DNA of 64,000 nucleotides from Candidatus Woesearchaeota archaeon (GCA_964514585.1 CAZETU010000004.1:1-64000); one strand, 5' to 3'. Numbered from the stretch's first letter, positions 39,986-58,542 are shown. A program made the numbers and translations. The notes: generated from the letters alone by a model not told the origin.

Positions 39986-40222
39986 TTATCTCAAAGAGAA
40001 AACTTCAGATTCAAAATCGAGATTTAATTCCTTGGCTAATTCTGCTTTAGGCTTCAAAACAACAAATTCAATTCCAGCAGATTCCAACTTTTCAACAGTC
40101 TCATCTCGAGTATCTTTAGCAATAAAAACGCCTTTCAATCCCTTCGGATTTTTCAAAGCTTGACGAACACCAAAACAAACATTCTTTTTTTCCATTCCTT
40201 CCCGAATTTCTTTTACGCTCAT
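39986..40222 (-). CDS. rpl30e: Divergent L30e/L7Ae-family ribosomal protein
   Basis: Canonical position between rpoA and nusA; FGVRQALK and VFIAKD motifs. Confidence 0.65.
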   Translation of the reverse strand: MSVKEIREGMEKKNVCFGVRQALKNPKGLKGVFIAKDTRDETVEKLESAGIEFVVLKPKAELAKELNLDFESEVFSLR

Positions 40223-43200
40223 ACTTTCTTCTCCTTTGTCTTCTCTTCTTTCTTAAGTTTCGATTGGACAGCCAATGGGCCAGTAACTTTAACCAACAAC
40301 CCAGGAAGACCCGTACCAACAGGAACCGGCTGATTCAAAATAACATTCTCAATCACCGACGCCAACTTATCCTTTCTACCAGTCTTAGTAGCCTGAACAA
40401 ACTGCTTATCTGGAGTCTCAAACGCAGCCCTTGCCAAAATCGAACTCTTGTCCCCAATAATACCCATTCGAGTAATACCCTTAACAGCACCAGAACCAGT
40501 CATAGTATCCGCGACAAGCATAGCGTGCTTGCCATCAATCGCAAGACCCTGAGAAACAATTACACCATTAATTTCATTAATAACTAATTGTCGAGCAGCC
40601 TCAATTCCCAAAACATCCGAAACCTCATAAATATCATTCGTAATAATCCTATCAGCATCGATACCCTTAAACTTCAGCAAATCCTTTAAATTTGAACCAG
40701 CCGTCAAAATCACATAATCCCTATCCCTCTTAACAACCAAAACCTGCGAAATCTTCTTAACACCAGTCAAAATAACTTCCTTAATTTTCTCCTTAGTTTT
40801 ATAAATCATCTTAAAATCTTCCTTAGACATATCAAGAGTAATTCCGTCAGACAACTTCTTAGCATCGAAACCCTTATCATTCAAAACCTCAACAGCCTTA
40901 TCTAAAGTTATGTGAGCCAATTTCAAAGATGCATTATCAACACCAATCTTAATCTTCTTAGAGCCAAAATCAATCCCAATCTCAGAAACAATTTCCTTCA
41001 ACTTAACTTCCTTAATCTTCTCAGCAACAACCCTAGCATCCTTCTCATTATTATGATCCTTATCCAAATAAATAACCATAGCTGGTGTCTTAGGTAACTT
41101 ACGAGCATCCAAAATTTCAATTATTCTCGGCAACCCCTGAGTAACCTGCATCTCTGCAACACCAGCAGCGTGAAACGTATTCAAAACCATCTGAGTCGAA
41201 GCTTCACCAAAACTCTGAGCAGTCACAACACCAATAGCTTCACCAGACGCAACCGGCATATTCTTATGTTTAGCAGAAACATCAATCCCATCAAGACCAT
41301 ACTTAAACTGAACAATATTATTAGAAGCATCCCTCACAGTACCGTCGTAAGCCATAACCAAATCCTGCAAAGAATTTGCCAACCTTCTATACAAATAACC
41401 AGACTTCGGCGTCCTAAGAGCTACATCCATCAGACCATCTCGACCAGTCATAGAACCAAAGAAAAATTCCTGAGCAGTCAAACCTTTCATCAAAGAACTA
41501 TAAATAAACCCTCTAGCCTTCGGCGACAAATCTCCCTTCTTGAAAAACGGCAATGTCCTATCGGTATACCCAAAATCAATTCTACGCCCATTCAATACTT
41601 GCTGCCCAACCGAACAGGCAATCTGAGTAATATTAAGCATACTACCCTTCGCCCCCGAACCAATCATCTTACTAGTCAAATTATCCTTAGGAAAACCTTC
41701 CTTAACAGCGTCACCAATCTCAGTTCGAGTCTCATTCAAAACCTGCAAAACCTTATTTTCCCTCGTCTCCTCAGAACTCTTACCCGGCAAGCATTCAATA
41801 CTGCCATCGTAATAACTATCAATAATTTTCTGAGACTTAGCCTCAGCAACTTCAATAATCTTAGCCGTCTTATTCTTAACTTCCTTAGGAACGTCTAAAT
41901 CAGTCATAGAAAGTGTAAACCCCGTCCTCGATAAAAAAGTCGTACCAATGGCAAAAACTCTTCTCAAAAGTTCAGTAACCTCACTTCGACTCATCTTAGT
42001 ATCAGCGATCCTTAAAGCGTCGCCACTACCTTCCTTAAATCCTTTAAAATCGACATTATCTCCAGCCATAACTTTAGGGATAACTTTATCAAAAACATCC
42101 TTTCCTGAATTCATTGCCTTAAAATTAGGAACCTCAACGCCCGCTTCATACATCAATTGCGAAGCGTCCTCCTTACTAAGTTCAGCCTCATTCAACATAA
42201 AATTCCCACTAACAGCATCCGCAACACAGCCTAAAAAATTCATATTATTCTTTGGCGAAAATAAATTATTATCAACATTCAACAAAACCTCTGCTTCAGC
42301 CCTAGCCTCTTCAGTCTGTGGAGCGTGAATATTCATCTCATCCCCATCAAAGTCCGCACCATAGGGACCACAAACAGCAGGATGAATTCTAAAAGTCCTA
42401 CATGGAAGAACCTTAACAAAATGAGCCATCAGCGACGCTCTATGCAAAGAAGGATGCCTATTAAACAAAACAATGTCTCCATCAATCAAATGCCTCTCAA
42501 CAACATAACCAGGCTCAATCTCCTCTTTCAATTCTTCCCTCAAATCATTAGTAATTCTTTTCCTCTTCCCATCAGGTCGAATAATATAATTAGCACCAGG
42601 ATATTCCGCCTTCATAATCAATTCCTTCAACTTCTTAATATTAAGCGATGTCACCCTCTCTGCAGCAGTCAAAATCTTTGCAACTTCAAAAGGAACACCA
42701 ACTTCATTTAGCCTCATATTAGGATCCGGAGAAATAACAGTACGAGCAGAAAAATTAACTCTCTTCCCAGCCAAATTCTTTCTAATTCGTCCTTCCTTAC
42801 CTTTAATTCTCTCAGTAATAGTCTTCAATGGCTGACCACTTCTATGCCTCGCTGGCGGAATCTTTGCAATTGAATTATCAAAGAAGGTCGTAATATGATA
42901 CTGCAATAAATCCCAAAGATCCTCGATAATAACCTCAGGCGCACCAGCATTCAAATTTTCCCAAAGCCTTTGATTAGACCGAATAATATCCGACAACTTA
43001 TGTGTCAAATCATCTTCACTTCTTTCACCAGATTCCAAAGTAATAGAAGGTCGAACCGTTACAGACGGAACAAGCAACAAAGTCAAAATCGCCCATTCAG
43101 GCCTCAAAGTCTCAGCATTAATTCCCAAAATCTTCAAATCGTCGTCGCTAACCTTAACCAATCTCTCCCTAATCTCAGAAGGGAAAAGTCTCCGCCTACC

Positions 43201-43659
43201 TGATCTAAAGGTAGTAGGTTTCTCCAACTTAACTTTCTCCTGAATAATACTACAATGAGGACATTTCTTTCCATCCTTAGCCTTCTTAATTCTATCAATC
43301 AAATTCTTACTCAAATCCTTCTCTTCTTTAATTAAAACCTTACCACAAGCCTCACAAGTTGACCTCAAAACCAAATCAATAATTGGCAGATACTTAATAT
43401 GAACAAGAGGTCGAGCTAATTCAATAACACCAGGATGACCAAGACATTCCTTCAATCGACCACCACAAGTTCTACACCGAACACCAGGGTCAATCGCACC
43501 AAGCCTCAAATCCATCAAACCACCATCAACCGGATAACCATCAACGTCATAAAGCTCCGGCGTCACAATCTTCGCAACACTCAACTTCTTAATCTGCTCA
43601 GGACTAAGTAAGTGAAAAGTCATCGCATCAATTTGTTTCTTAATTGGTTTCCTACTCAT
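40219..43659 (-). CDS. rpoA1: RNA polymerase largest subunit, A' and A'' fused (1146 aa)
   Basis: Clamp Zn sites, FNRHPSLHR, GADFDGDEMN, bridge helix, then in frame GEAIGVVTAQSFGEASTQMVLNTFHAAG and A'' C-terminal motifs. Confidence 0.95.
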   Translation of the reverse strand: MSRKPIKKQIDAMTFHLLSPEQIKKLSVAKIVTPELYDVDGYPVDGGLMDLRLGAIDPGVRCRTCGGRLKECLGHPGVIELARPLVHIKYLPIIDLVLRSTCEACGKVLIKEEKDLSKNLIDRIKKAKDGKKCPHCSIIQEKVKLEKPTTFRSGRRRLFPSEIRERLVKVSDDDLKILGINAETLRPEWAILTLLLVPSVTVRPSITLESGERSEDDLTHKLSDIIRSNQRLWENLNAGAPEVIIEDLWDLLQYHITTFFDNSIAKIPPARHRSGQPLKTITERIKGKEGRIRKNLAGKRVNFSARTVISPDPNMRLNEVGVPFEVAKILTAAERVTSLNIKKLKELIMKAEYPGANYIIRPDGKRKRITNDLREELKEEIEPGYVVERHLIDGDIVLFNRHPSLHRASLMAHFVKVLPCRTFRIHPAVCGPYGADFDGDEMNIHAPQTEEARAEAEVLLNVDNNLFSPKNNMNFLGCVADAVSGNFMLNEAELSKEDASQLMYEAGVEVPNFKAMNSGKDVFDKVIPKVMAGDNVDFKGFKEGSGDALRIADTKMSRSEVTELLRRVFAIGTTFLSRTGFTLSMTDLDVPKEVKNKTAKIIEVAEAKSQKIIDSYYDGSIECLPGKSSEETRENKVLQVLNETRTEIGDAVKEGFPKDNLTSKMIGSGAKGSMLNITQIACSVGQQVLNGRRIDFGYTDRTLPFFKKGDLSPKARGFIYSSLMKGLTAQEFFFGSMTGRDGLMDVALRTPKSGYLYRRLANSLQDLVMAYDGTVRDASNNIVQFKYGLDGIDVSAKHKNMPVASGEAIGVVTAQSFGEASTQMVLNTFHAAGVAEMQVTQGLPRIIEILDARKLPKTPAMVIYLDKDHNNEKDARVVAEKIKEVKLKEIVSEIGIDFGSKKIKIGVDNASLKLAHITLDKAVEVLNDKGFDAKKLSDGITLDMSKEDFKMIYKTKEKIKEVILTGVKKISQVLVVKRDRDYVILTAGSNLKDLLKFKGIDADRIITNDIYEVSDVLGIEAARQLVINEINGVIVSQGLAIDGKHAMLVADTMTGSGAVKGITRMGIIGDKSSILARAAFETPDKQFVQATKTGRKDKLASVIENVILNQPVPVGTGLPGLLVKVTGPLAVQSKLKKEEKTKEKKV

Positions 43660-48452: not shown

Positions 48453-49556
48453 CTATTTATTCATATCAAAATATTTAGCCAACTTCGGACCATGTTGACC
48501 CTGATAATGAGAGCCCTTTCCCTTCTCTCCATATAAAACCTCTGGGAGATCTTTCATACGATAAAACTTGAAACTCCCTATCCTTTGTCCATCCGTCAAT
48601 AAAAAAGGCTGGCCAAAATTCCTAACCTCAAGAGTTGCTTGCGCTCTAAAATTAGGATCAAAAAACCCTGCATAATGAACACGAACTTCTCCAGCATCCG
48701 TTTCGATATCAACCATTTCCGAACAAAGATTTGCAGGGATGCTAATAATCTCCTTACTAGAAAGAATATAGAAAGAATTAGAATTAACAATAAGCCCCTT
48801 ACCCAAACCCTTAGATAAATAGACTTTATCAAAATACTCTGAAAAGGGAAGATCTCTTTTAGAAAGATCGACAGGAGGAGCATTTTCCTTAGAAACAAAC
48901 CCAGGAAACCTTTCATCCAAATCTAAAGTTAAAGAAAATATTCCGTTAAAAAGCCCTTTACCTTCACTCAAAAGACATTCAGTATCATTGTTTGACTCAA
49001 ACAATAAACCATAATTTTTATTAATTTTTTTCAAACAATCTTCATCAAGACAACAAGTGTTAGAGTCAAAAAATCTAAGCTGATTAAGACAATCCCCTTT
49101 GCGAACAATAATATCAAAAGACCTAGGATATATTTCAACCCACAACTTCCCACTATAACCATAAGGTATCTTATCAAAAGAAGTTCCATTTTCAGCTATT
49201 AATCTAACATGAACATCAATTCTACCAATAGAACTTTTAGGATTAACTCTCCCAGAAATTCCCGGAGGCAATTTCAAATATTCTTGCAACTCAAAAACAT
49301 AAACACAATTTTTATGCAAAAATCCATTCTTACTCAAATCAACGTCATAAGAAGAATTATTTTTCAAAAACTCTTCAAAATTTCCATTAGAAGAAATAGA
49401 AGAAAAAGGCAAACAATAACCCATCTCACCTAACCTCAAGTCCAAAGAAGAAGGTTGTATTTGATTTTCGTTTACAGCCTCCTTTGAACAAATCAACCCT
49501 CTTTCAATTAATTTCTTAATACCCTTATCGGAATAAACGCCCCCTTCTTCAATCAT
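48453..49556 (-). CDS. dcd: dCTP deaminase, long two-domain form
   Basis: QIQPSSLDLRLG, NPKSSIGRIDV, RVHYAGFFDP, SHYQGQ. Confidence 0.85.
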   Translation of the reverse strand: MIEEGGVYSDKGIKKLIERGLICSKEAVNENQIQPSSLDLRLGEMGYCLPFSSISSNGNFEEFLKNNSSYDVDLSKNGFLHKNCVYVFELQEYLKLPPGISGRVNPKSSIGRIDVHVRLIAENGTSFDKIPYGYSGKLWVEIYPRSFDIIVRKGDCLNQLRFFDSNTCCLDEDCLKKINKNYGLLFESNNDTECLLSEGKGLFNGIFSLTLDLDERFPGFVSKENAPPVDLSKRDLPFSEYFDKVYLSKGLGKGLIVNSNSFYILSSKEIISIPANLCSEMVDIETDAGEVRVHYAGFFDPNFRAQATLEVRNFGQPFLLTDGQRIGSFKFYRMKDLPEVLYGEKGKGSHYQGQHGPKLAKYFDMNK

Positions 49557-49637
49557 ACAAAAAAATGATTAATCCCATTTATATAAATTATTGTGATTAG
49601 TTAAGCTATAAATAAAATTAAAAATTAGCCCACTCTA

Positions 49638-49721
49638 CTAAATATTACTTCCACCGCTACCAAAAGCCCTGTTACCCAGAACACTATCACTAAGCTCGCC
49701 GACAACCGACAACTCAATCAC
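49638..49721 (-). pseudogene. Stranded dUTPase 3'-end remnant
   Basis: Translates VIELSVVGELSDSVLGNRAFGSGGSNI*, matching the intact dut end ETVDELSDSVRGEAAFGSG*SNI*. Confidence 0.8.
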
Positions 49722-49807
49722 TCAAAATCATAACTAACAAAAAATTATTCATCTACATATTGTTACAATAAGGTAAACTATAAATAACAACACTGCCTCA
49801 ACAACTT

Positions 49808-50266
49808 ATGGAACAATACAACTTCCAATACTGCCCAAAAATAATAATATTCTCAAAAGACAAATCAAAAGTACTCTTATGCAAAAGAAAAGGAGAAAAC
49901 GACTACGACGGAACATTTGGGTTCCCGGGAGGAAAAATGGAAACAACCGACAACTCAATCATCGAAGGACTAGCAAGAGAGAAAAACGAAGAACTAAGCC
50001 CATCCTTCAAAATCAAAATCTTAAAAACATTCACAAACAACATCCTATTCAAAAAGAAAAACGGGAAATCCATGATTCTGCCATACTACCTAGCAATACA
50101 TGAAAACGGAGAGGTAAAAATAAATGAAGAATATTCAGAATACAAATGGGTCCAAATAAAAGATTTAGAAGAATTCGGCCCCAGAATGCCAAACATCCCT
50201 GAAGTTACAGAAAAAATGAAAAAACTATTAACAATCTCAAAAGAACACGACTTCGAAATAATCTAA
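49808..50266 (+). CDS. NUDIX hydrolase
   Basis: FPGGKMETTDNSIIEGLAREKNEE Nudix box. Confidence 0.88.
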   Translation: MEQYNFQYCPKIIIFSKDKSKVLLCKRKGENDYDGTFGFPGGKMETTDNSIIEGLAREKNEELSPSFKIKILKTFTNNILFKKKNGKSMILPYYLAIHENGEVKINEEYSEYKWVQIKDLEEFGPRMPNIPEVTEKMKKLLTISKEHDFEII

Positions 50267-50312
50267 ACCCAAAACAATAAACAAAATTAAATAACTCTAA
50301 TTAAATATTACT

Positions 50313-50951
50313 TCAACCACTTCCAAAAGCCGCTTCTCCTCGAACAGAATCTGACAATTCATCTACAGTCTCAATATCCACCATTGCAACCGGCGCAATC
50401 ACAACTTGAGCAACTTGATCTCCAGTTCTAATCACAAAATCCTCATCACTTGTATTCAAGAAAACAACCCCATATTCTCCAGTATAAGTATACTCGATTA
50501 CTCCCCCAAGAATACAAATCCCCCTCTTATATGCCAAACCACTCTTCCCCCGAATCGAAGCGAAATAACCCTCAGGCAATTCCATCGCAATCCCCGTAGA
50601 AATCAACTGTCTTTTTCCAGCCGGCACAACATAATCTTCACAAGAATGCAAATCTAAAGCAGCATCACCAGGATGTCCATAACTAGGAATGATAGCATTC
50701 TCCTTCAATTTTTTAATCTTCACTTTAACCGCCCCCTCGTCAATCAACTCAAACCGCTTAACCCTTCGACCATCCTCAAAAATCTTATCCCCACAAAACT
50801 CATCCAACAACCTAACCCAAGTCACGCCATCACCGTAAAGAGCCTTATACACAACTAACATCTGATCCGTATTATCACAATTCCGCGCAACATCAACAAT
50901 CTCATATTCGCCCCCCTTAAAATGCCGATACCGCTCTCCAACCTCAACCAT
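50313..50951 (-). CDS. dut: DUF1653-dUTPase fusion protein
   Basis: N-terminal YRHFKGGEY...VVYKALYG; trimeric dUTPase motifs AALDL, GKSG, GGVIEYTYTG, AQVVI, RG..AFGSG; start at ATG 50951. Confidence 0.88.
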   Translation of the reverse strand: MVEVGERYRHFKGGEYEIVDVARNCDNTDQMLVVYKALYGDGVTWVRLLDEFCGDKIFEDGRRVKRFELIDEGAVKVKIKKLKENAIIPSYGHPGDAALDLHSCEDYVVPAGKRQLISTGIAMELPEGYFASIRGKSGLAYKRGICILGGVIEYTYTGEYGVVFLNTSDEDFVIRTGDQVAQVVIAPVAMVDIETVDELSDSVRGEAAFGSG

Positions 50952-51007
50952 AAAAAACAAAACAACTAACACTTTATAAAAATTATTACACTCTAATCTC
51001 CACTTCT

Positions 51008-51235
51008 TCAAACCGAACTCTCATCAATCAACTCAAACCGTTTAACCCTCCGTCCATCATCAAAAACTTTATCTCCACAAAACTCATCAAGCGACCTGTC
51101 CCAAGTCCCACCCTCGCCATAAAGCGCCTTATACTTAACTAACATCTGACCTGCATTATCACAATTCGGCGCAACATCAATAATCTCATACTCGCCACCC
51201 TTAAAATGCCGATATCTCTCTCCAGCCTCAACCAT
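51008..51235 (-). CDS. Stand-alone DUF1653 protein
   Basis: MVEAGERYRHFKGGEY..., near-identical to the N-domain of the dut fusion. Confidence 0.8.
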   Translation of the reverse strand: MVEAGERYRHFKGGEYEIIDVAPNCDNAGQMLVKYKALYGEGGTWDRSLDEFCGDKVFDDGRRVKRFELIDESSV

Positions 51236-51269
51236 AAAAAACAAAACCCAAAATACTTTATAAAAATTA

Positions 51270-51971
51270 TTACACCCTGATATCTACTTTCTCAAAATAC
51301 TCAACAGCAACAGCCTTCAATTTCTCCAAATATTCCTCACGCACATCCAATTCCGTCACCAAACTCTTATCTATCATCTCATGCCCAGATTTAAACCCCT
51401 GCAAAAATAAATTCTTAGGCTTGCCCCCACAAACATCATTCAACCACCGACCCATTTCCTCAACAACACTCTCGTCATGAAACTTATTCAAAATCGTCGT
51501 CCTAAACTCGTACTTCCCAAAATCATAAATAATCTTCATCGACTTCTCAACCTTCTCAATATTAACATCAACCCCGACAACATTAGAATAATTCGCCCGA
51601 GAACTCTTAACATCCATCGCAATATAATCAATCAAACCCTCGTCAATCAACTCTTTCAACTTGTCTGGAAACGACCCATTAGTATCAATCTTCACCAAAT
51701 AGCCCATGGCCTTAATCTTCTTCAAAAAACCAACATCCAAAGTCATCAACGGCTCACCACCAGTCACACAAACAGCGTCCAGCTTCCCACGACGCCTCTC
51801 TAAAAATTCCAAAATATAACTCTCAGAAAAAATCTCACTATCACCTCCAAGTACCAACAATGGATTATAACAAAACCCACAACGAAAATTACAACCAAAT
51901 AAAAAAATGGTACACGCAACTTTCCCTGGATAATCAACCAGAGTAGTCCTTTGCAAACCTAAAATTTTCAT
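51270..51971 (-). CDS. nrdG: Anaerobic RNR activating radical SAM enzyme
   Basis: GCNFRCGFCYN (CxxxCxxC), VTGGEP, DTNG; GGAGGTG SD. Confidence 0.92.
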   Translation of the reverse strand: MKILGLQRTTLVDYPGKVACTIFLFGCNFRCGFCYNPLLVLGGDSEIFSESYILEFLERRRGKLDAVCVTGGEPLMTLDVGFLKKIKAMGYLVKIDTNGSFPDKLKELIDEGLIDYIAMDVKSSRANYSNVVGVDVNIEKVEKSMKIIYDFGKYEFRTTILNKFHDESVVEEMGRWLNDVCGGKPKNLFLQGFKSGHEMIDKSLVTELDVREEYLEKLKAVAVEYFEKVDIRV

Positions 51972-51994
51972 AAACACCTCCAAAAAAATTAAAA

Positions 51995-52009
51995 GGGGGG
52001 AAATCCCCC
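51995..52009 (-). terminator. GC hairpin plus U-tract between the small NrdD ORF and nrdG
   Basis: Minus strand GGGGG-ATTT-CCCCC then TTTTAATTTTTTT, then the nrdG SD. Confidence 0.55.
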
Positions 52010-52016
52010 AGGAAAT

Positions 52017-52139
52017 TTAACAATCGGAACAGAACATAGAACGATCCTTAAACTCTTCTAGTTTACCGTCGTTCCATCGAGCAGTCGGTCTCAAATATCC
52101 GCAAACCCTGCTCCAAACTTCACACTTAGTTCTCCCCAT
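52017..52139 (-). CDS. 40-aa stand-alone glycyl-radical segment of class III RNR
   Basis: MGRTKCEVWSRVCGYLRPTARWNDGKLEEFKDRSMFCSDC*; GGAGGTG 6 nt before the ATG; different frame from nrdD. Confidence 0.88.
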   Translation of the reverse strand: MGRTKCEVWSRVCGYLRPTARWNDGKLEEFKDRSMFCSDC

Positions 52140-54360
52140 TGGCATCACCTCCAAAATTTAGTTGAGATTCAAAATTAACACTCGAAACACTAGGGGCCGA
52201 CAAATTGTCCTCAACAACAACATTGGCAACCTTCAAAACAGGAACTTCTGCAACCGGAGCAACGACGACTGGAGCTTCAGCAATAGGGGCTTCAGCAATT
52301 TCCTCAGGTTGTACCTCAGGCAAAACATCTTTAGCAACAGGAGTTGTATGTGCCTCAGCTTCAGCAATATCAGCATCACACTTAGGACAATATTCATGTT
52401 CCCCAGCCAAATAACCATGAATCGGACAAATCGAAAACGTAGGAGTAATTGTAAAATAAGGCAAATGATAATTATTAGAAATCTTTTTAACCATCGTCCT
52501 AACAGCATCCTTACTCAGCTTCTCCCCAACAAAAGTATGAAACACCGTTCCCCCAGTATACTTACATTGCAAGTCATCCTGCAAATCAAGCGCCTCAAAA
52601 ACATCATCAGTATGATTCACTGCCAACTGTGTCGAATTAGTATAATACGGCTTCGCCCCGTCCTGGTACGCCTTTTCATTCGCAACCAAAATTCGGCCAA
52701 ACCTTTTCTTATCAATCCGTGCAAACCTATAAGTCGTACCCTCACCCGGAGTCGCCTCAAGATTGTAAATACTATTAGTCTCTTCCTGATATTCCTCAAG
52801 CTTCTCTCTCATAAAATCCAAAACCTTAATAGAAAAAGCCATCCCCTTCTCCGTCGCAATATCCTCACCAGGCATAAAATTAGTAATCGACTCATTCATA
52901 CCCAAAAGTCCAATCGTCGAAAAATGATTCTTCCAATACTCTCCAAACCGTTGATGAACCTGTCTCAAATAAAACCTAGTATACGGATAAAGCCCCACAT
53001 TAATAAACTGCTCAATCGTCTTCCTCTTAATCTCAAGGCTCTCCTTCGCCAACTCCATCAATCTAGCCAGCCGCGCCATATAGTCATCTTCACTCGTCGA
53101 CACATAACCAAGTCTAGGCATATTAATCGTCACAACCCCAATCGAACCAGTCAAGGGATTAGAACCAAATAAACCACCACCCCTCTTCTTTAGTTGAGTA
53201 TTATCAATACGAAGACGACAACACATACTTCTAGCGTCCTCAGGATTCATATCTGAATTAACAAAATTGGAAAAATAAGGTATACCATACTTCGCCGTCA
53301 TTTCCCAAAGTAAATCGTGGGAAGGATTGTCCCAATCAAAATTTTTCGTAATATTATATGTCGGAATAGGAAAAGTAAAAACCTGCCCCGTCGCATCGCC
53401 CTCAAGCATGCATTCAGCAAACGCCCGATTAATCATTTCCATCTCAACCTCAAAATCCCCATAAGTCTCGCTCTGCGGTTGCCCACCAATAACAACATGT
53501 TCATCCTTCATATAAGACGGAATCTCCAAGTCCATAGTAATATTTGTAAACGGCGTCTGAAACCCAACCCTCGTCGGCACAGCCATATTAAAAATAAACT
53601 CCTGCATCGCCTGCTTCACCTGCTTATAGTCCAACTTATCATAACGAACAAATGGAGCAAGTAAAGTATCAAAATTAGAAAACGCCTGAGCCCCGGCAGT
53701 CTCACCTTGTAAAGTATAAAAGAAGTTCACCATCTGCCCCAAAGCAGTCCTCAAATGCTTAGCAGGCTTACTCTCAACTTTCCCCTTAACGCCCTTAAAC
53801 CCAACCGTCAACAAATCCTTCAAATCCCAACCAACACAATAAGCACCAAGAGTCCCCAAGTCATGAATATGCAAATCACCAGCCTCGTGAACTTTCCGAA
53901 TCGCCTCAGGATAAATCCGCCTCATCCAATAATTCGTAATAATCTTCGTCGCAATATAATTATTCAACCCCTGCAACGAAAACCCCATATTAGAATTCTC
54001 CTTAACCATCCAATCATTCAAACCAATATAATCATCAACTGCCTCAATCGTATCAAACAACCCCTTAACATCCCGTAGCTCCTGTCGGCTCTGTCTATAC
54101 AAAATAAACGATTTAGAAACCTTCGCATGCCCCTCCTCAATTAAAACCTTCTCAACAAGATCCTGAACCTCTTCAACGTCAGGTATACCAAAATCCCCAT
54201 AAGTTTCATCTAACTTTTCACAAACTAAGCCTGCAAGATGCACCGACTTCTCTTTATCTTTCCCGCCAACAGCCTTAACCGCCTTCCAAATAGCGTCGGA
54301 AATTTTATCTTTCTGAAAGAATACAACACACCCATCTCTTTTTCTTATTTTTTTAACCAT
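52126..54360 (-). CDS. nrdD: Class III ribonucleotide reductase catalytic subunit with ATP cone, lacking the Gly-radical loop
   Basis: ATP cone IRKRDG, HIHDL, GAQA, SMCCRLR finger loop, LEATPGEG, CPIH...CPKC; ends in an A/P/E/V-rich tail with no RVxGY. Confidence 0.95.
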   Translation of the reverse strand: MVKKIRKRDGCVVFFQKDKISDAIWKAVKAVGGKDKEKSVHLAGLVCEKLDETYGDFGIPDVEEVQDLVEKVLIEEGHAKVSKSFILYRQSRQELRDVKGLFDTIEAVDDYIGLNDWMVKENSNMGFSLQGLNNYIATKIITNYWMRRIYPEAIRKVHEAGDLHIHDLGTLGAYCVGWDLKDLLTVGFKGVKGKVESKPAKHLRTALGQMVNFFYTLQGETAGAQAFSNFDTLLAPFVRYDKLDYKQVKQAMQEFIFNMAVPTRVGFQTPFTNITMDLEIPSYMKDEHVVIGGQPQSETYGDFEVEMEMINRAFAECMLEGDATGQVFTFPIPTYNITKNFDWDNPSHDLLWEMTAKYGIPYFSNFVNSDMNPEDARSMCCRLRIDNTQLKKRGGGLFGSNPLTGSIGVVTINMPRLGYVSTSEDDYMARLARLMELAKESLEIKRKTIEQFINVGLYPYTRFYLRQVHQRFGEYWKNHFSTIGLLGMNESITNFMPGEDIATEKGMAFSIKVLDFMREKLEEYQEETNSIYNLEATPGEGTTYRFARIDKKRFGRILVANEKAYQDGAKPYYTNSTQLAVNHTDDVFEALDLQDDLQCKYTGGTVFHTFVGEKLSKDAVRTMVKKISNNYHLPYFTITPTFSICPIHGYLAGEHEYCPKCDADIAEAEAHTTPVAKDVLPEVQPEEIAEAPIAEAPVVVAPVAEVPVLKVANVVVEDNLSAPSVSSVNFESQLNFGGDANGEN

Positions 54361-54403
54361 CTATTTTTCCTTATGTATTTATGTTACTCTTTGAGCAACC
54401 ATC

Positions 54404-54847
54404 TTATTTTCCTAATTTAGCAAGCTCATCTTTGAACTCATCAATATCTGCAAAGTCACGGTATACCGCAGCAAATCGAACATACGCAACCTTATCGACT
54501 TTCTTCAGCTTATTCATAACAATCTCCCCGATACGCGTACTCTTAATGTCCTTATCTTTAGCAACCCGATAAACATTCGCCTCAACCTCATCCACAATTC
54601 TTTCTATCTCAGCACTCGTGAATGGCCTCTTCTGAAGATTATTATCAATTCCCTCAAAAAGCTTAGCTCGCGAAAATTTCTGCCTCCGACCGTCCTTTTT
54701 AATAACGTTCAAATCCAACTCCACTCGCTCATACGTAGTAAACCGCTTACCACATTTCAAGCACTCTCGCCGCCTCCGAGTCAAAGATTCACTATCTCTT
54801 TTATCAGTAACTTTCGTTTCAGCAGCACAACAGTATGGACATTGCAT
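54404..54847 (-). CDS. nrdR: NrdR transcriptional repressor
   Basis: MQCPYC...RRRRECLKCGKRFTTYER, VIKKDG ATP cone, VAYVRFAAVYRDF; start at 54847. Confidence 0.95.
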   Translation of the reverse strand: MQCPYCCAAETKVTDKRDSESLTRRRRECLKCGKRFTTYERVELDLNVIKKDGRRQKFSRAKLFEGIDNNLQKRPFTSAEIERIVDEVEANVYRVAKDKDIKSTRIGEIVMNKLKKVDKVAYVRFAAVYRDFADIDEFKDELAKLGK

Positions 54848-54866
54848 TTTTGTTATTTTATAATGA

Positions 54867-54882
54867 ATACAAGATATTGTAT
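54867..54882. promoter_or_regulatory. NrdR box 1
   Basis: ATACAAGATATTGTAT; fits the acaCwAtATaTwGtgt consensus. Confidence 0.8.
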
Positions 54883-54898
54883 CTCGCACCCCTTTTTG

Positions 54899-54914
54899 CC
54901 ACAATAAATTGTGG
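54899..54914. promoter_or_regulatory. NrdR box 2
   Basis: CCACAATAAATTGTGG; starts 32 bp after box 1. Confidence 0.8.
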
Positions 54915-55072
54915 GCGTAAGAGAATATTAACCAAAAGAGTATTTAAAGATTATTGTCCTCCAGCTACTATTTATGTTAACTATAGTAAACATTGTAGAC
55001 TGACAGTTACTTTTTTCAAATGATTACGCATCTTTAAGAACCTCTCACATCAAAACTCCCATAAAGAATTCA

Positions 55073-56317
55073 TTAATAAAAAGAAAACCTTTTACACAAC
55101 TCCCCAACCTCTAACTTAATCTTAGAACAAACAGATTCATCAGACAAATTTTCAATAACATCAGCAATCCAATTCCCAACGATAATCATTTCATTCTCCT
55201 TCATACCCATAGTTGTCAAAATCGGGACACCCAACCTAATTCCAGATGGTTTAAACGGAGTAGATGGATCAAACGGAACAGTGTTGGCGTTAGTCACAAT
55301 TCCCGCTTCCTCCAAAGCAACAGCAACCTCTCGACCCCTGCCCGGCTCACCAATAGCAGAAGTCTTAATCAAATCAATCAAAATCAAATGATTATCGGTC
55401 CCATCACTAACCAACTTAATATTCCTCTTCTTCAAGGTCTCCGCCAAAATAAAACAATTATCAATAATCTGCTGAGAATATTTTTTAAACTCTGGCTTTA
55501 ACGCCTCGCCAAAAGCAATTGCCTTAGCCGCAATCGTATGCTCATGAGGACCGCCCTGCAACCCCGGGAAAACGGCCTTATCAATTGCCTTACCAAATTC
55601 TTCCTTACACATAATTATTGCACTCCTAGGACCTCTCAAAGTCTTATGCGTTGTCGTCGTCACAAAATCAAAATCCGGAAACGGAGTTGGATGAACACCA
55701 CTAGCAACTAAACCAGCAACATGAGAAATATCCGCCAAACAATAAGCTCCAATCTCCTTAGCAATTAAAGCGAAGGCCTTAAAATCAATCTCTCGAGGAT
55801 AAGCCGTCGCCCCACAAACAATCATCTTCGGCCTCTCGCGCAAAGCAATCTCTCTAACCTTCTCCATGTCAACAATTCCAGTTTCCTCCTCAACACCATA
55901 AGAAACAAAATCATAGTCTTTCCCAGAAAAATTCACCTTCGACCCATGAGTCAAATGTCCACCATGCATCAAATCCATTCCAAGAATCTTATCCCCCTTC
56001 TCCAAAACCGCAACATAAACCGCCATATTCGCAGGACTCCCAGAATTCGGCTGCACATTTACATGTTCAGCCCCAAACAATTTCTTCGCCCGCTCAATCG
56101 CCAAATTCTCAACCTTATCAACAAACTCATTCCCTTGATAATACCTCTTCCCAGGATAACCCTCTGCATACTTATTATTAAAAACCGAACCACACGCCGC
56201 CAAAACATCCTTAGAACAAAAATTCTCCGAAGGAATCATATTCAAAGTCGTCTTCTGTCGCTCCAACTCGTCAACAACGATCTCATTCACCTCAGAATCC
56301 AAAATCCAAAAAGTCAT
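55073..56317 (-). CDS. glyA: Serine hydroxymethyltransferase, bacterial type
   Basis: MIPSENF, KYAEGYPGKRYY, GGHLTHG, TTTHKTLRGPR, PGLQGGPH. Confidence 0.96.
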   Translation of the reverse strand: MTFWILDSEVNEIVVDELERQKTTLNMIPSENFCSKDVLAACGSVFNNKYAEGYPGKRYYQGNEFVDKVENLAIERAKKLFGAEHVNVQPNSGSPANMAVYVAVLEKGDKILGMDLMHGGHLTHGSKVNFSGKDYDFVSYGVEEETGIVDMEKVREIALRERPKMIVCGATAYPREIDFKAFALIAKEIGAYCLADISHVAGLVASGVHPTPFPDFDFVTTTTHKTLRGPRSAIIMCKEEFGKAIDKAVFPGLQGGPHEHTIAAKAIAFGEALKPEFKKYSQQIIDNCFILAETLKKRNIKLVSDGTDNHLILIDLIKTSAIGEPGRGREVAVALEEAGIVTNANTVPFDPSTPFKPSGIRLGVPILTTMGMKENEMIIVGNWIADVIENLSDESVCSKIKLEVGELCKRFSFY

Positions 56318-58542
56318 AACAAAGTACTCTTGGCTTCAGTTTGTTCCTCAGCCTTCAACCGACCAAGCTCCTCCTCAGAATAATTGCAAACAATATACTT
56401 CGCCAAAATCGGATACCTCTCTTTCATTATCTCATAAACCCTATAAGCGATTCTCCTATACGAATCATGCGCCAACGGAATCGTCCTCAACTTAATCAAA
56501 TGATACAACTCCCTTAAATTCATCGTAATCAAAAACCTCTTCCTAAATCCAAGCGGCAAAAGATACTGCGCCTGCCACGGATACTTCTCACGAACCCTAT
56601 CGTAAACAACCTTCGCCTTTTCCATCGCAAGTCGATACTCACTTTCAACCCCAGCAGCCACGATATCTTTCGGAATATCATAGCCAAGGTCAGCAGTAAA
56701 AAGAGGATTCGTCTGAGTACAAATCCTATGCCTCTGCAAATCACGAAAAGCCCCATAATCCATCACAATCTCAAAACTAAAACTCTCATGCTCTAATTCC
56801 CTCATCGGATAATCAAATTCCCCCATCTTCCCAAGGTAATCATCCAAAACTCTTTCCTTATCAAAAACACTCATCAAAGCAACCTCTCGACTAATCTTAT
56901 CAAACGACTTATTATTAAATCTATACAAAATAGAAGAAACAATTCTATCCTCAGGATTTTCAGGAACCCCAACCAACTTCACCTTCTCCCCATCAAAATT
57001 ATTATCACCAAAATCATAACTCTGCATCGCATCCTGTGTATCACAAATATAATTTTTCTTATCCGCAAATTCCAATAAAGACGGCAAAACCTTCCGCCCC
57101 TCAACTTTCAACATCTCGCCAATCTCCTTCATCTCTTTCAGCGGATGCGACGAAAGCTTCGAAATAGCATGCGACAACTGTCTAGCATTAAGAGTCCACC
57201 CAAGGCTCGTCTTAGTACAGGTCGGAAGCAAATAACGAATAGCATCAAATCTCCGAGAACCACAAGCCCTTTCCCAAGCCGCCTTTGATCCCCCCGCCCC
57301 AAAAGGAGCCGAACCCTTGACATAATCCAAAACTGGAACATGTAGCTTCGTATAAGTCTCAAAAAGATAATCCAACATCTCACCAATCTCACCAACAAAT
57401 TCAGAATTCTTCAAAACAGGATCAAGATAAAACGAACTCCTATTAAACGAAACATACCTCGTAGACTTTTCGCAAAAAGAAGCCAATCTATTATCCTCAA
57501 TAATCTTCGTCGCCAAAATACTCACTCCCTCAAGACCAAATCCAACAACAGCCCCCTCAGCAATAGAACTATGACCATAACCAAGAACCCATTTCTCCAT
57601 AAATTGAATCGCCTTTTCCGTCGCGTGCTTAGTCGCCTCCCCAGCACCAGTCTTCTTTAACTCAGCAACAAGCAAATTAAAATTACTTTCATCCTCCTTC
57701 AGTAAATCCAAAAAACTATCCCTCAACCCGCCCTGAGACCGGCTATATCTCGCCTGCATCAAAGCCCAAACCTCAGGATGAAAATTCTTAGTAGCAAAAA
57801 TCGAGCTATCAACATTAGTAAAAAAATAATCCAAAACCAATCTTTCGTCAGAACTATAACTCAAACTATCACCCAACTTCTCCCAAAGTTCCTTATGAAT
57901 TTCTTCTGGTGTCTTCAAAGAGGCCATCGTTCCATCAGGCGCACAATTAATCTTAATCCAACCATACAACTCCGCCAAATGCAAATACGACTCCTCCGCA
58001 TTCCTCATATGCTCCTCATTACTCTCATGCCCATCAATATCCCCCTTCTCGGAACGAAACCTAGAACCCCGATTCCCCATTAACTCCTGACTAACCCCAT
58101 ACGGCATATAAAGAAAAACAACGACATCAGGCCTCGGCAAACTAAAATTCTCATACTCCAACTCACGCAACCACTCAAAAAAACTCTCCCTCTCTATCTC
58201 ATCACGAATCTTCCCTCCCTGGTGCCCCATATTAGACTCAACATATCTATCCAAAATCGTCACATTACCCTTCTTCAACTCGTCCTGAATAAACCTCTTT
58301 GACGCAAATCTATCCTCGGCATAAAAAATCGAAGCAACCTTCGCCGGAACCTCATTCGCAGGTCCAAGCCAACCATCAAGATACCGTCTCACAACCTTCC
58401 CAGTCGGCGTAGAATAATCCGGAAAATCCAAAGCCACAACTCCACGATTCATCGATTTCAATTTCTCAATCAACAAATCAATCTGCGTAGATTTCCCACA
58501 ACAATGACTTCCTTCAAAAACAATCAACTTACCCTTCCTCAT
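56314..58542 (-). CDS. thyX: Thymidylate kinase fused to two-domain flavin-dependent thymidylate synthase
   Basis: N-terminal Tmk (EGSHCCGKST, LDRY..SN); ThyX-like GHSSIAE, EKSTRYV and RDLQRHR. Confidence 0.88.
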   Translation of the reverse strand: MRKGKLIVFEGSHCCGKSTQIDLLIEKLKSMNRGVVALDFPDYSTPTGKVVRRYLDGWLGPANEVPAKVASIFYAEDRFASKRFIQDELKKGNVTILDRYVESNMGHQGGKIRDEIERESFFEWLRELEYENFSLPRPDVVVFLYMPYGVSQELMGNRGSRFRSEKGDIDGHESNEEHMRNAEESYLHLAELYGWIKINCAPDGTMASLKTPEEIHKELWEKLGDSLSYSSDERLVLDYFFTNVDSSIFATKNFHPEVWALMQARYSRSQGGLRDSFLDLLKEDESNFNLLVAELKKTGAGEATKHATEKAIQFMEKWVLGYGHSSIAEGAVVGFGLEGVSILATKIIEDNRLASFCEKSTRYVSFNRSSFYLDPVLKNSEFVGEIGEMLDYLFETYTKLHVPVLDYVKGSAPFGAGGSKAAWERACGSRRFDAIRYLLPTCTKTSLGWTLNARQLSHAISKLSSHPLKEMKEIGEMLKVEGRKVLPSLLEFADKKNYICDTQDAMQSYDFGDNNFDGEKVKLVGVPENPEDRIVSSILYRFNNKSFDKISREVALMSVFDKERVLDDYLGKMGEFDYPMRELEHESFSFEIVMDYGAFRDLQRHRICTQTNPLFTADLGYDIPKDIVAAGVESEYRLAMEKAKVVYDRVREKYPWQAQYLLPLGFRKRFLITMNLRELYHLIKLRTIPLAHDSYRRIAYRVYEIMKERYPILAKYIVCNYSEEELGRLKAEEQTEAKSTLL

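Follow-up and report, generated by a model that had tools for sequence, protein, structure and literature searches.

A class III ribonucleotide reductase gene split ahead of its glycyl-radical loop in a DPANN archaeon

Background

Class III ribonucleotide reductase (RNR) is a textbook enzyme which carries its radical on its own C-terminus. At the nrdD locus analyzed here, and in many lineages, the glycyl-radical loop is instead the product of a separate gene of 40 residues. The locus, composed of a large gene (nrdD-L) and a small one (nrdD-S), belongs to a stretch of 64,000 nucleotides (nt) from Candidatus Woesearchaeota archaeon (GCA_964514585.1 CAZETU010000004.1:1-64000), the whole of which is called the window in what follows. 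It was compared with the single-chain NrdD and its activase NrdG, as known from Prevotella copri (8P23/8P2S), Thermotoga maritima (4COI/4U3E), phage T4 (1H78) and S. thermophilus (9D3X). The ATP-cone, the barrel, the Cys finger loop, the zinc ribbon, the sequence of the RVxGY loop and the adjacent NrdG are common to both. Unlike the single-chain enzyme, the protein encoded here is interrupted after the zinc ribbon and resumes at the glycine loop (at about residues 704 and 710 of the P. copri protein); the loop, together with the C-terminal helix, is a protein of 40 amino acids (aa) by itself, and the large chain ends in a long, acidic and poorly conserved tail.

In phages, a class I nrdA interrupted by a homing endonuclease gene is known. 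In the split class II RNRs NrdJa/NrdJb, as at the present locus, the catalytic chain is encoded by two consecutive genes, and the products assemble non-covalently (PMC9669993). Both cases differ from the present one: they concern other RNR classes and other cut points, their pieces are both sizeable domains, and in neither is the detached piece the radical-bearing element.

Known examples of small stand-alone proteins whose glycyl-radical loop serves a large barrel enzyme in trans are GrcA/YfiD from E. coli and Y06I from phage T4. The nrdD-S open reading frame (ORF), which has its own Shine-Dalgarno (SD) site and ATG, and an unlinked copy of 43 aa are of the same general kind, and virus-encoded versions exist for GrcA-type proteins and for the split-NrdD peptide. 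However, GrcA is a protein of about 127 aa of the pyruvate formate-lyase (PFL) type (Pfam Gly_radical, PF01228), which repairs an enzyme having its own replaceable loop, whereas the 40-aa peptide is of the NrdD type, matches NRDD and not PF01228, and has a loopless partner of which it would be an obligate subunit. Spare parts are stated as known only for formate lyases (PMC13450708; PMC8683613). No published description of a split NrdD, or of a spare part for a class III RNR, was found in the searchable literature, most subscription journals being outside reach.

Structure of the split nrdD locus

The elements of the locus are as follows:

52126..54360, minus strand: nrdD-L, class III RNR large chain, 744 aa, with an ATP-cone (aa 4-93), alpha/beta barrel, zinc ribbon and acidic tail, without the glycyl-radical loop
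52378..52428, minus strand: zinc-ribbon ligands C645-x2-H648 ... C658-x2-C661 (CPIH...CPKC), placed by alignment; last conserved element of nrdD-L
52129..52377, minus strand: acidic tail of nrdD-L, 83 aa, low complexity, rich in A, E, P and V; 16 D+E versus 2 K+R
52146..52152, minus strand: GGAGGTG, SD-like, exactly 6 nt 5' of the nrdD-S ATG (52139), read from the sequence
52017..52139, including the stop (52017-52019), minus strand: nrdD-S, 40-aa glycyl-radical peptide in the +1 frame, with a 14-nt overlap with nrdD-L
52098..52100, minus strand: Gly14 codon in RVCGY, predicted radical glycine, from alignment of the peptide to the Gly711 loop of P. copri NrdD (LQRITGYL)

The initial annotation of the window had claimed that NrdD stops after its zinc site and a tail without any RVxGY motif, and profile comparisons agree. 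The match of nrdD-L to Pfam NRDD (PF13597) covers only positions 1-528 of 562 (E 9e-180, 599.5 bits for a cut-off of 26.2) and is accompanied by a match to the Pfam ATP-cone; with NCBIfam NF006126 the score is 1039.7 bits (cut-off 548) over profile positions 2-654 of 684. The barrel core of the class III NrdD family is present above the cut-off. The C-terminus of the 744-aa chain reads ...CPKC-DADIAEAE...NFGGDANGEN-TAA, and RVxGY is absent from it. In 52 nrdD-L homologues, C175 and M379-C380-C381, i.e. the finger-loop and bottom cysteines for thiyl-radical chemistry, are invariant, as are C645, C658 and C661 of the zinc ribbon, H648 being conserved in at least 90%; metal binding at this site is predicted.

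The remainder of the profile is found on another polypeptide, in another frame: nrdD-S matches Pfam NRDD at positions 531-562 (E 2e-10) and TIGR02487 at positions 547-579. From the ATG at 52139 it reads MGRTKCEVWSRVCGYLRPTARWNDGKLEEFKDRSMFCSDC, and is followed by the stop at 52017-52019. The +1 frame at the junction is TTG(52154) GAG GTG ATG(52145) CCA ATG(52139) GGG AGA ACT AAG TGT..., and the SD site and the start of nrdD-S are encoded within the last codons of the nrdD-L tail. The coordinates and sequence proposed initially for this element (a 40-aa ORF overlapping the nrdD end, with GGAGGTG 6 nt before its ATG) are accurate, and the further claim that the loop is a separate peptide used in trans fits the zinc site on the large chain, the SD and ATG of the peptide gene and the adjacent nrdG. 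Because the loop is carried by a separate and separately initiated small protein, the enzyme must use it in trans.

The segment following CPKC varies from 14 to 102 aa in length and, apart from the final codons with the SD site, defies alignment between species. Its median length is 56 aa in the genus of the window and 19 aa in other split genera.

Cys6 of nrdD-S (52122-52124, minus strand; KCEV) is located 8 residues before the radical glycine. All 37 split peptides have it, and so do the two unlinked copies and, in a set biased by the query profile, 155 of 156 small database proteins; among fused NrdDs of the same order, it is found in only 5 of 20. This residue could contact the zinc site of the large chain.

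Very probably, the gene structure is that of a class III RNR obligately made of two chains, of which the radical peptide is translated separately. In such an enzyme nrdD-L would supply the ATP-cone, the catalytic barrel with its Cys finger loop and the zinc ribbon, and the contribution of nrdD-S would be limited to the buried glycine loop (RVCGY) with the short helix after it. The peptide would be translated from its own SD and ATG; since these sit within the final nrdD-L codons, its translation is probably coupled to that of nrdD-L. We infer the later steps, i.e. assembly, activation, radical transfer and reduction of nucleoside triphosphates: the peptide would insert non-covalently into the barrel at the place occupied by the C-terminal loop of single-chain NrdD, NrdG would abstract a hydrogen atom from Gly14, and the radical would then shuttle to Cys380/381 and start nucleotide reduction.

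Conservation and variety of the junction

Gene structure, conservation, selection on the peptide and genomic context were observed directly. NrdD is present in 37 of the 49 species genomes searched in the genus. In 36 of these 37, the glycine loop is in an open frame of 39-73 aa, and the last one has only an N-terminal fragment of NrdD; no fused gene was observed in the genus. In the family, the loop was detected in 94 of 301 genomes sampled, in a small frame for 62 and in a long frame for 32. Split and fused forms both occur in the order, and in the phylum they are roughly equal in number, about half of the genomes having a small frame; this last tally takes in the unpublished genomes G755 and G685, both of the fused type, on which no claim rests.

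The junction was compared in 37 split loci. Relative to nrdD-L, the small ORF is in frame 0 in 5 cases (behind an in-frame TAA, TAG or TGA), in frame +1 in 19 cases and in frame +2 in 13 cases, and its distance to the stop of nrdD-L varies between an overlap of 53 nt and a gap of 70 nt. The start codon is ATG in 37/37 loci, and an SD-like site (GGAGG, GAGGT or AAGGA) is located upstream in 36/37. A shift site shared by the 37 junctions was not found. Over the 31 core codons of the small ORF, non-synonymous divergence (pN) is 0.16-0.24, versus a saturated synonymous divergence (pS) of about 0.78; by this measure nrdD-S is under purifying selection. Residues R11, G14, R17, N23, G25, K26, E29 and R33 are invariant in 51 sequences of the peptide region, whether split, unlinked or fused.

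In some relatives (G013, locus L022; G019, G043, G047, G050 and G052) the nrdD-L frame reaches 1000-1800 aa, and the NRDD profile is interrupted near positions 77, 157 and 472 by insertions that keep the frame and are several hundred residues long. Inteins were a candidate explanation, but Pfam detected no intein family in L022, the one case tested.

Comparison with known structures

The position of the cut was located on P. copri NrdD. The phmmer alignment of the large chain to 8P23 stops at CPKC, i.e. at about residue 704, and the peptide aligns to residues 710-736, around Gly711, the residue named for this protein in PMC11226230. The fold was modelled on a relative (L012) in which the two ORFs are separated only by an in-frame TAA; this codon was read as Q and the product folded as a single chain. 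The core of this read-through model has a mean predicted local distance difference test (pLDDT) score of 84.6, the linker equivalent to the tail 50-60, and the peptide part 84-90. The peptide part is predicted as a beta-hairpin, which has the glycine at its tip and leads into a helix. Superposition on P. copri 8P2S, in which the radical domain is ordered, gives Z 34.9 and a root-mean-square deviation of 2.7 A (model residues 93-744 on residues 85-735 of the chain), and the model also superposes on T4 NrdD through residue 587; Z is 30-35 over the solved single-chain NrdDs. Such agreement is expected from the likeness to these solved structures, and is a matter of consistency, not proof.

Electron cryo-microscopy of single-chain NrdD indicates that its radical domain is mobile, leaves the barrel and is invisible in the dATP-inhibited state (PMC11226230). 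Because of this mobility, a detachable loop is plausible.

Evolutionary history of the split

A maximum-likelihood tree was built from 54 large chains, after removal of the tail and of the loop. One clade, with a support of 99 by the SH-like approximate likelihood ratio test (SH-aLRT), groups 35 split genes and 1 fused gene (L045, ...CPKCDVRTRCEVYSRVVGY); its sister consists of fused genes from the same family. A split gene from another family (L027, family f4) is placed in the second main clade, together with 14 genes which are all fused. A single clade for all split genes was rejected by the approximately unbiased (AU) test (p 0.0001), because L027 lies outside the split clade and the fused L045 is nested among split genes. 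The tree placements and this rejection indicate that the split is old and stable, that it arose or was transferred more than once, and that it was reversed at least once. The layout very probably arose in an ancestor of a large Pacearchaeota-like DPANN clade, and was kept while the junction was repeatedly remodelled.

Unlinked, viral and distant copies of the peptide gene

The host genome contains another gene of this kind:

G000 C3:39870-39998 (L003:1480-1611; L063:8870-8998), host genome, outside the window: second, unlinked radical-peptide gene, 43 aa, MKSERVKCVIYSRVTGYLRPVDQWNEGKRAEFNSRKVFKIGLD, NrdD-type

On one side this gene is flanked by a surface-protein gene (Laminin_G/CARDB), on the other by a ROK kinase gene in convergent orientation, and a NiFe-hydrogenase cluster is adjacent. 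No SD site precedes it; a TTAAAT found about 25 nt upstream of its ATG may signal a leaderless transcript of the archaeal type. The copy occurs unchanged on 18 contigs, and independent contigs show no nucleotide difference either in the gene or in the 1.5 kb flanking it on both sides. The sequence closest to it (75% identity) belongs to another split operon, of which it is the linked small subunit. For unlinked copies in general, the best cellular matches (67-75% identity) and the best viral ones (69-77%) are equivalent for a sequence of 40 aa. G019 and G337 likewise contain extra unlinked copies, and in the phylum the number of small-frame matches reaches 2-4 in some genomes.

Among the best 80 IMG/VR loci (L074-L153; e.g. 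L075, L077, L082, L091 and L097), 67 correspond to a small ORF without nrdD-L within 3 kb. Four viral genomes rated complete (49-62 kb, two of them with terminal repeats) contain the peptide only and no nrdD-L, and one lone viral copy is situated 1.3 kb from a terminase gene. Some viral peptides, which originate from the same sample series as the population of the window, bear the signature of its genus, CE[VI]WSRVVGYLRPT.RWN; the peptides of L086 and L087 (series 3300005935 and 3300005915) resemble those of the genus. The viral match at first seemed to reach the region of the zinc ribbon (NRDD 489-562, interrupted by a stop), but this did not hold up: the ORF upstream on L075 has neither a Pfam match nor NrdD-like sequence. 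If the peptide works in trans, as the layout suggests, unlinked and viral copies can also supply it. As the lone genes of complete viral genomes suggest, a host enzyme may be fitted with a radical module supplied by the virus.

A search of a set of 5.8 billion proteins with the peptide profile retrieved at least 7,931 small proteins (19-123 aa). Split forms among the 80 closest named genomes are distributed over Iainarchaeum, Diapherotrites, Micrarchaeota, Thermoplasmatales, several bacteria of the candidate phyla radiation (CPR) and Elusimicrobia. The order nrdD-L, nrdG, peptide is observed in Halanaerobium kushneri ATCC 700103 (L221/L235), Halanaerobium sp. MA284 (L197/L234) and Orenia metallireducens MSL40 (L206/L236). 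In these Halanaerobiales, nrdD-L has a short acidic tail and the peptide gene (43-47 aa) has its own SD. H. kushneri ATCC 700103 and O. metallireducens MSL40 are cultured, and would be tractable carriers of the split layout.

The small gene had been described as easily missed by gene callers. At this locus the description does not apply: the 40-aa gene was called on every independent contig shown, and thousands of such small proteins are in public sets, some named "anaerobic ribonucleoside-triphosphate reductase" and others "hypothetical". For annotation, the large ORF should not be taken for a truncated pseudogene, nor the small one for a "hypothetical" protein.

Alternative explanations

A broken nrdD may also result from a sequencing or assembly indel, or from the decay of a pseudogene. 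The indel had to be excluded because one G fewer in the GGGG run at 52133-52136 would restore a single frame. The exact 744-aa protein is found on 14 contigs obtained from several JGI and ENA samples and with several assemblers, all with an identical junction, and the overlapping 40-aa gene is called in the same arrangement on 4/4 of those contigs shown; moreover dozens of species share the layout, both parts are under purifying selection, and the split nrdD is the only RNR found in the genome. The chance of an artefact or pseudogene is close to nil, and this explanation is effectively excluded. A programmed +1 frameshift or stop read-through, by which a single-chain NrdD would be produced without independent translation of the small ORF, has in its favor the fact that the two frames of the window overlap, a +1 shift within about 30 nt being enough to fuse them. 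Besides, an SD-like element upstream of a stop codon also stimulates the frameshift of prfB. Yet a conserved shift site and a constant frame relation, as in prfB or dnaX, are both lacking: in relatives the small ORF occurs in frame 0 (behind TAA, TAG or TGA), +1 or +2, with gaps of up to 70 nt and no shared slippery site, while the ATG is common to 37/37 loci and the SD-like site to 36/37. Furthermore nrdG is inserted between the two genes in Halanaerobium and Orenia, and lone peptide copies exist, either unlinked or viral. We consider this possibility very improbable, and frameshifting is effectively excluded as the main explanation. Four points nevertheless weigh against the obligate two-chain RNR. 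Its support lies at the level of genes and sequences, not of protein or activity. A minor fused product might arise by occasional frameshifting in the species of the window. The host genome being about 90% complete, another RNR could be unassembled. Finally, the structural support comes from a single-chain read-through of a relative, and AlphaFold would dock the loop by likeness to known NrdDs in any case.

A different question is whether the 40-aa peptide is a consumable cofactor, which after cleavage by O2 would be replaced by a fresh peptide activated by NrdG, as GrcA/YfiD does for PFL. In this proposal, made in the initial annotation, the split would be maintained since O2 cuts the chain at the radical glycine, and a detached peptide would limit the loss to 40 residues instead of 744. 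It adds a rationale to the two-chain RNR and does not exclude it. DPANN archaea are known for split protein genes, and a neutral origin of the split is plausible as well; the re-fusion of the gene in one lineage (L045) indicates that the split is not strongly advantageous. Swapping needs a peptide which works in trans, and the gene layout supports such use; extra unlinked copies (G000, G019, G337), the 2-4 small-frame matches of some genomes of the phylum and complete viral genomes with the peptide only point in the same direction, as does the mobile radical domain of single-chain NrdD, which leaves the barrel (PMC11226230). A 2026 review leaves open the existence of spare parts outside PFL (PMC13450708). 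However, the oxygen-cost rationale comes from the analogy with GrcA, gene data saying nothing on exchange or turnover. The large chain being loopless, the linked peptide is a regular subunit rather than a spare; one peptide copy is present in most split genomes, and the unlinked copy, between surface-protein and ROK kinase genes, has no oxidative-stress context. We hold the consumable cofactor to be a rather unlikely proposal. It is just as doubtful that fresh peptide may come from the linked gene, from the unlinked gene, or from a virus keeping the deoxynucleoside triphosphate (dNTP) synthesis of its host running. If true, the exchangeable peptide would be the first spare-part system outside PFL and a new type of viral auxiliary gene. 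The split layout makes testable the question raised in the review, i.e. whether spare parts exist in glycyl-radical enzymes other than PFL, and the peptide would be a natural minimal substrate for NrdG.

Neighbouring genes and genome context

The region 48453-58542 is a dNTP-supply island, in which nrdG, nrdD-S, nrdD-L and an NrdR-like gene are found among other genes of dNTP supply:

51270..51983, minus strand: nrdG, radical S-adenosylmethionine (radical-SAM) activase, 233 aa from the ATG at 51971; Pfam Radical_SAM and Fer4_12; CxxxCxxC motif
54404..54904, minus strand: NrdR-like repressor; Pfam Zn_ribbon_NrdR and ATP-cone; directly upstream of nrdD-L
within 48453-58542: long dCTP deaminase (DCD_N + DCD_C, 367 aa), NUDIX gene, DUF1653-dUTPase fusion and lone DUF1653 gene
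within 48453-58542: serine hydroxymethyltransferase (SHMT) and 742-aa thymidylate kinase-ThyX fusion

The nrdG gene is directly downstream of nrdD-S and occupies the same position on independent contigs, as expected of a cognate activase. NrdR is mainly bacterial; the NrdR-like gene of the island belongs to an archaeal genome.

The host genome measures 1.04 Mb. In this assembly, which is 89.65% complete, neither the class I/II RNR barrel (PF02867) nor the PFL-type Gly_radical domain (PF01228) was found, nor was a fused NrdD; the split nrdD is the only RNR found. Close relatives of this genome are labelled Pacearchaeota, Nanoarchaeota or Woesearchaeota archaeon, i.e. DPANN archaea.

A last observation concerns RNA polymerase subunit A, which most archaea split into A' and A''. 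In the window (40219-43659, minus strand), Rpb1 domains 1-5 are contained within a single ORF of 1146 aa.

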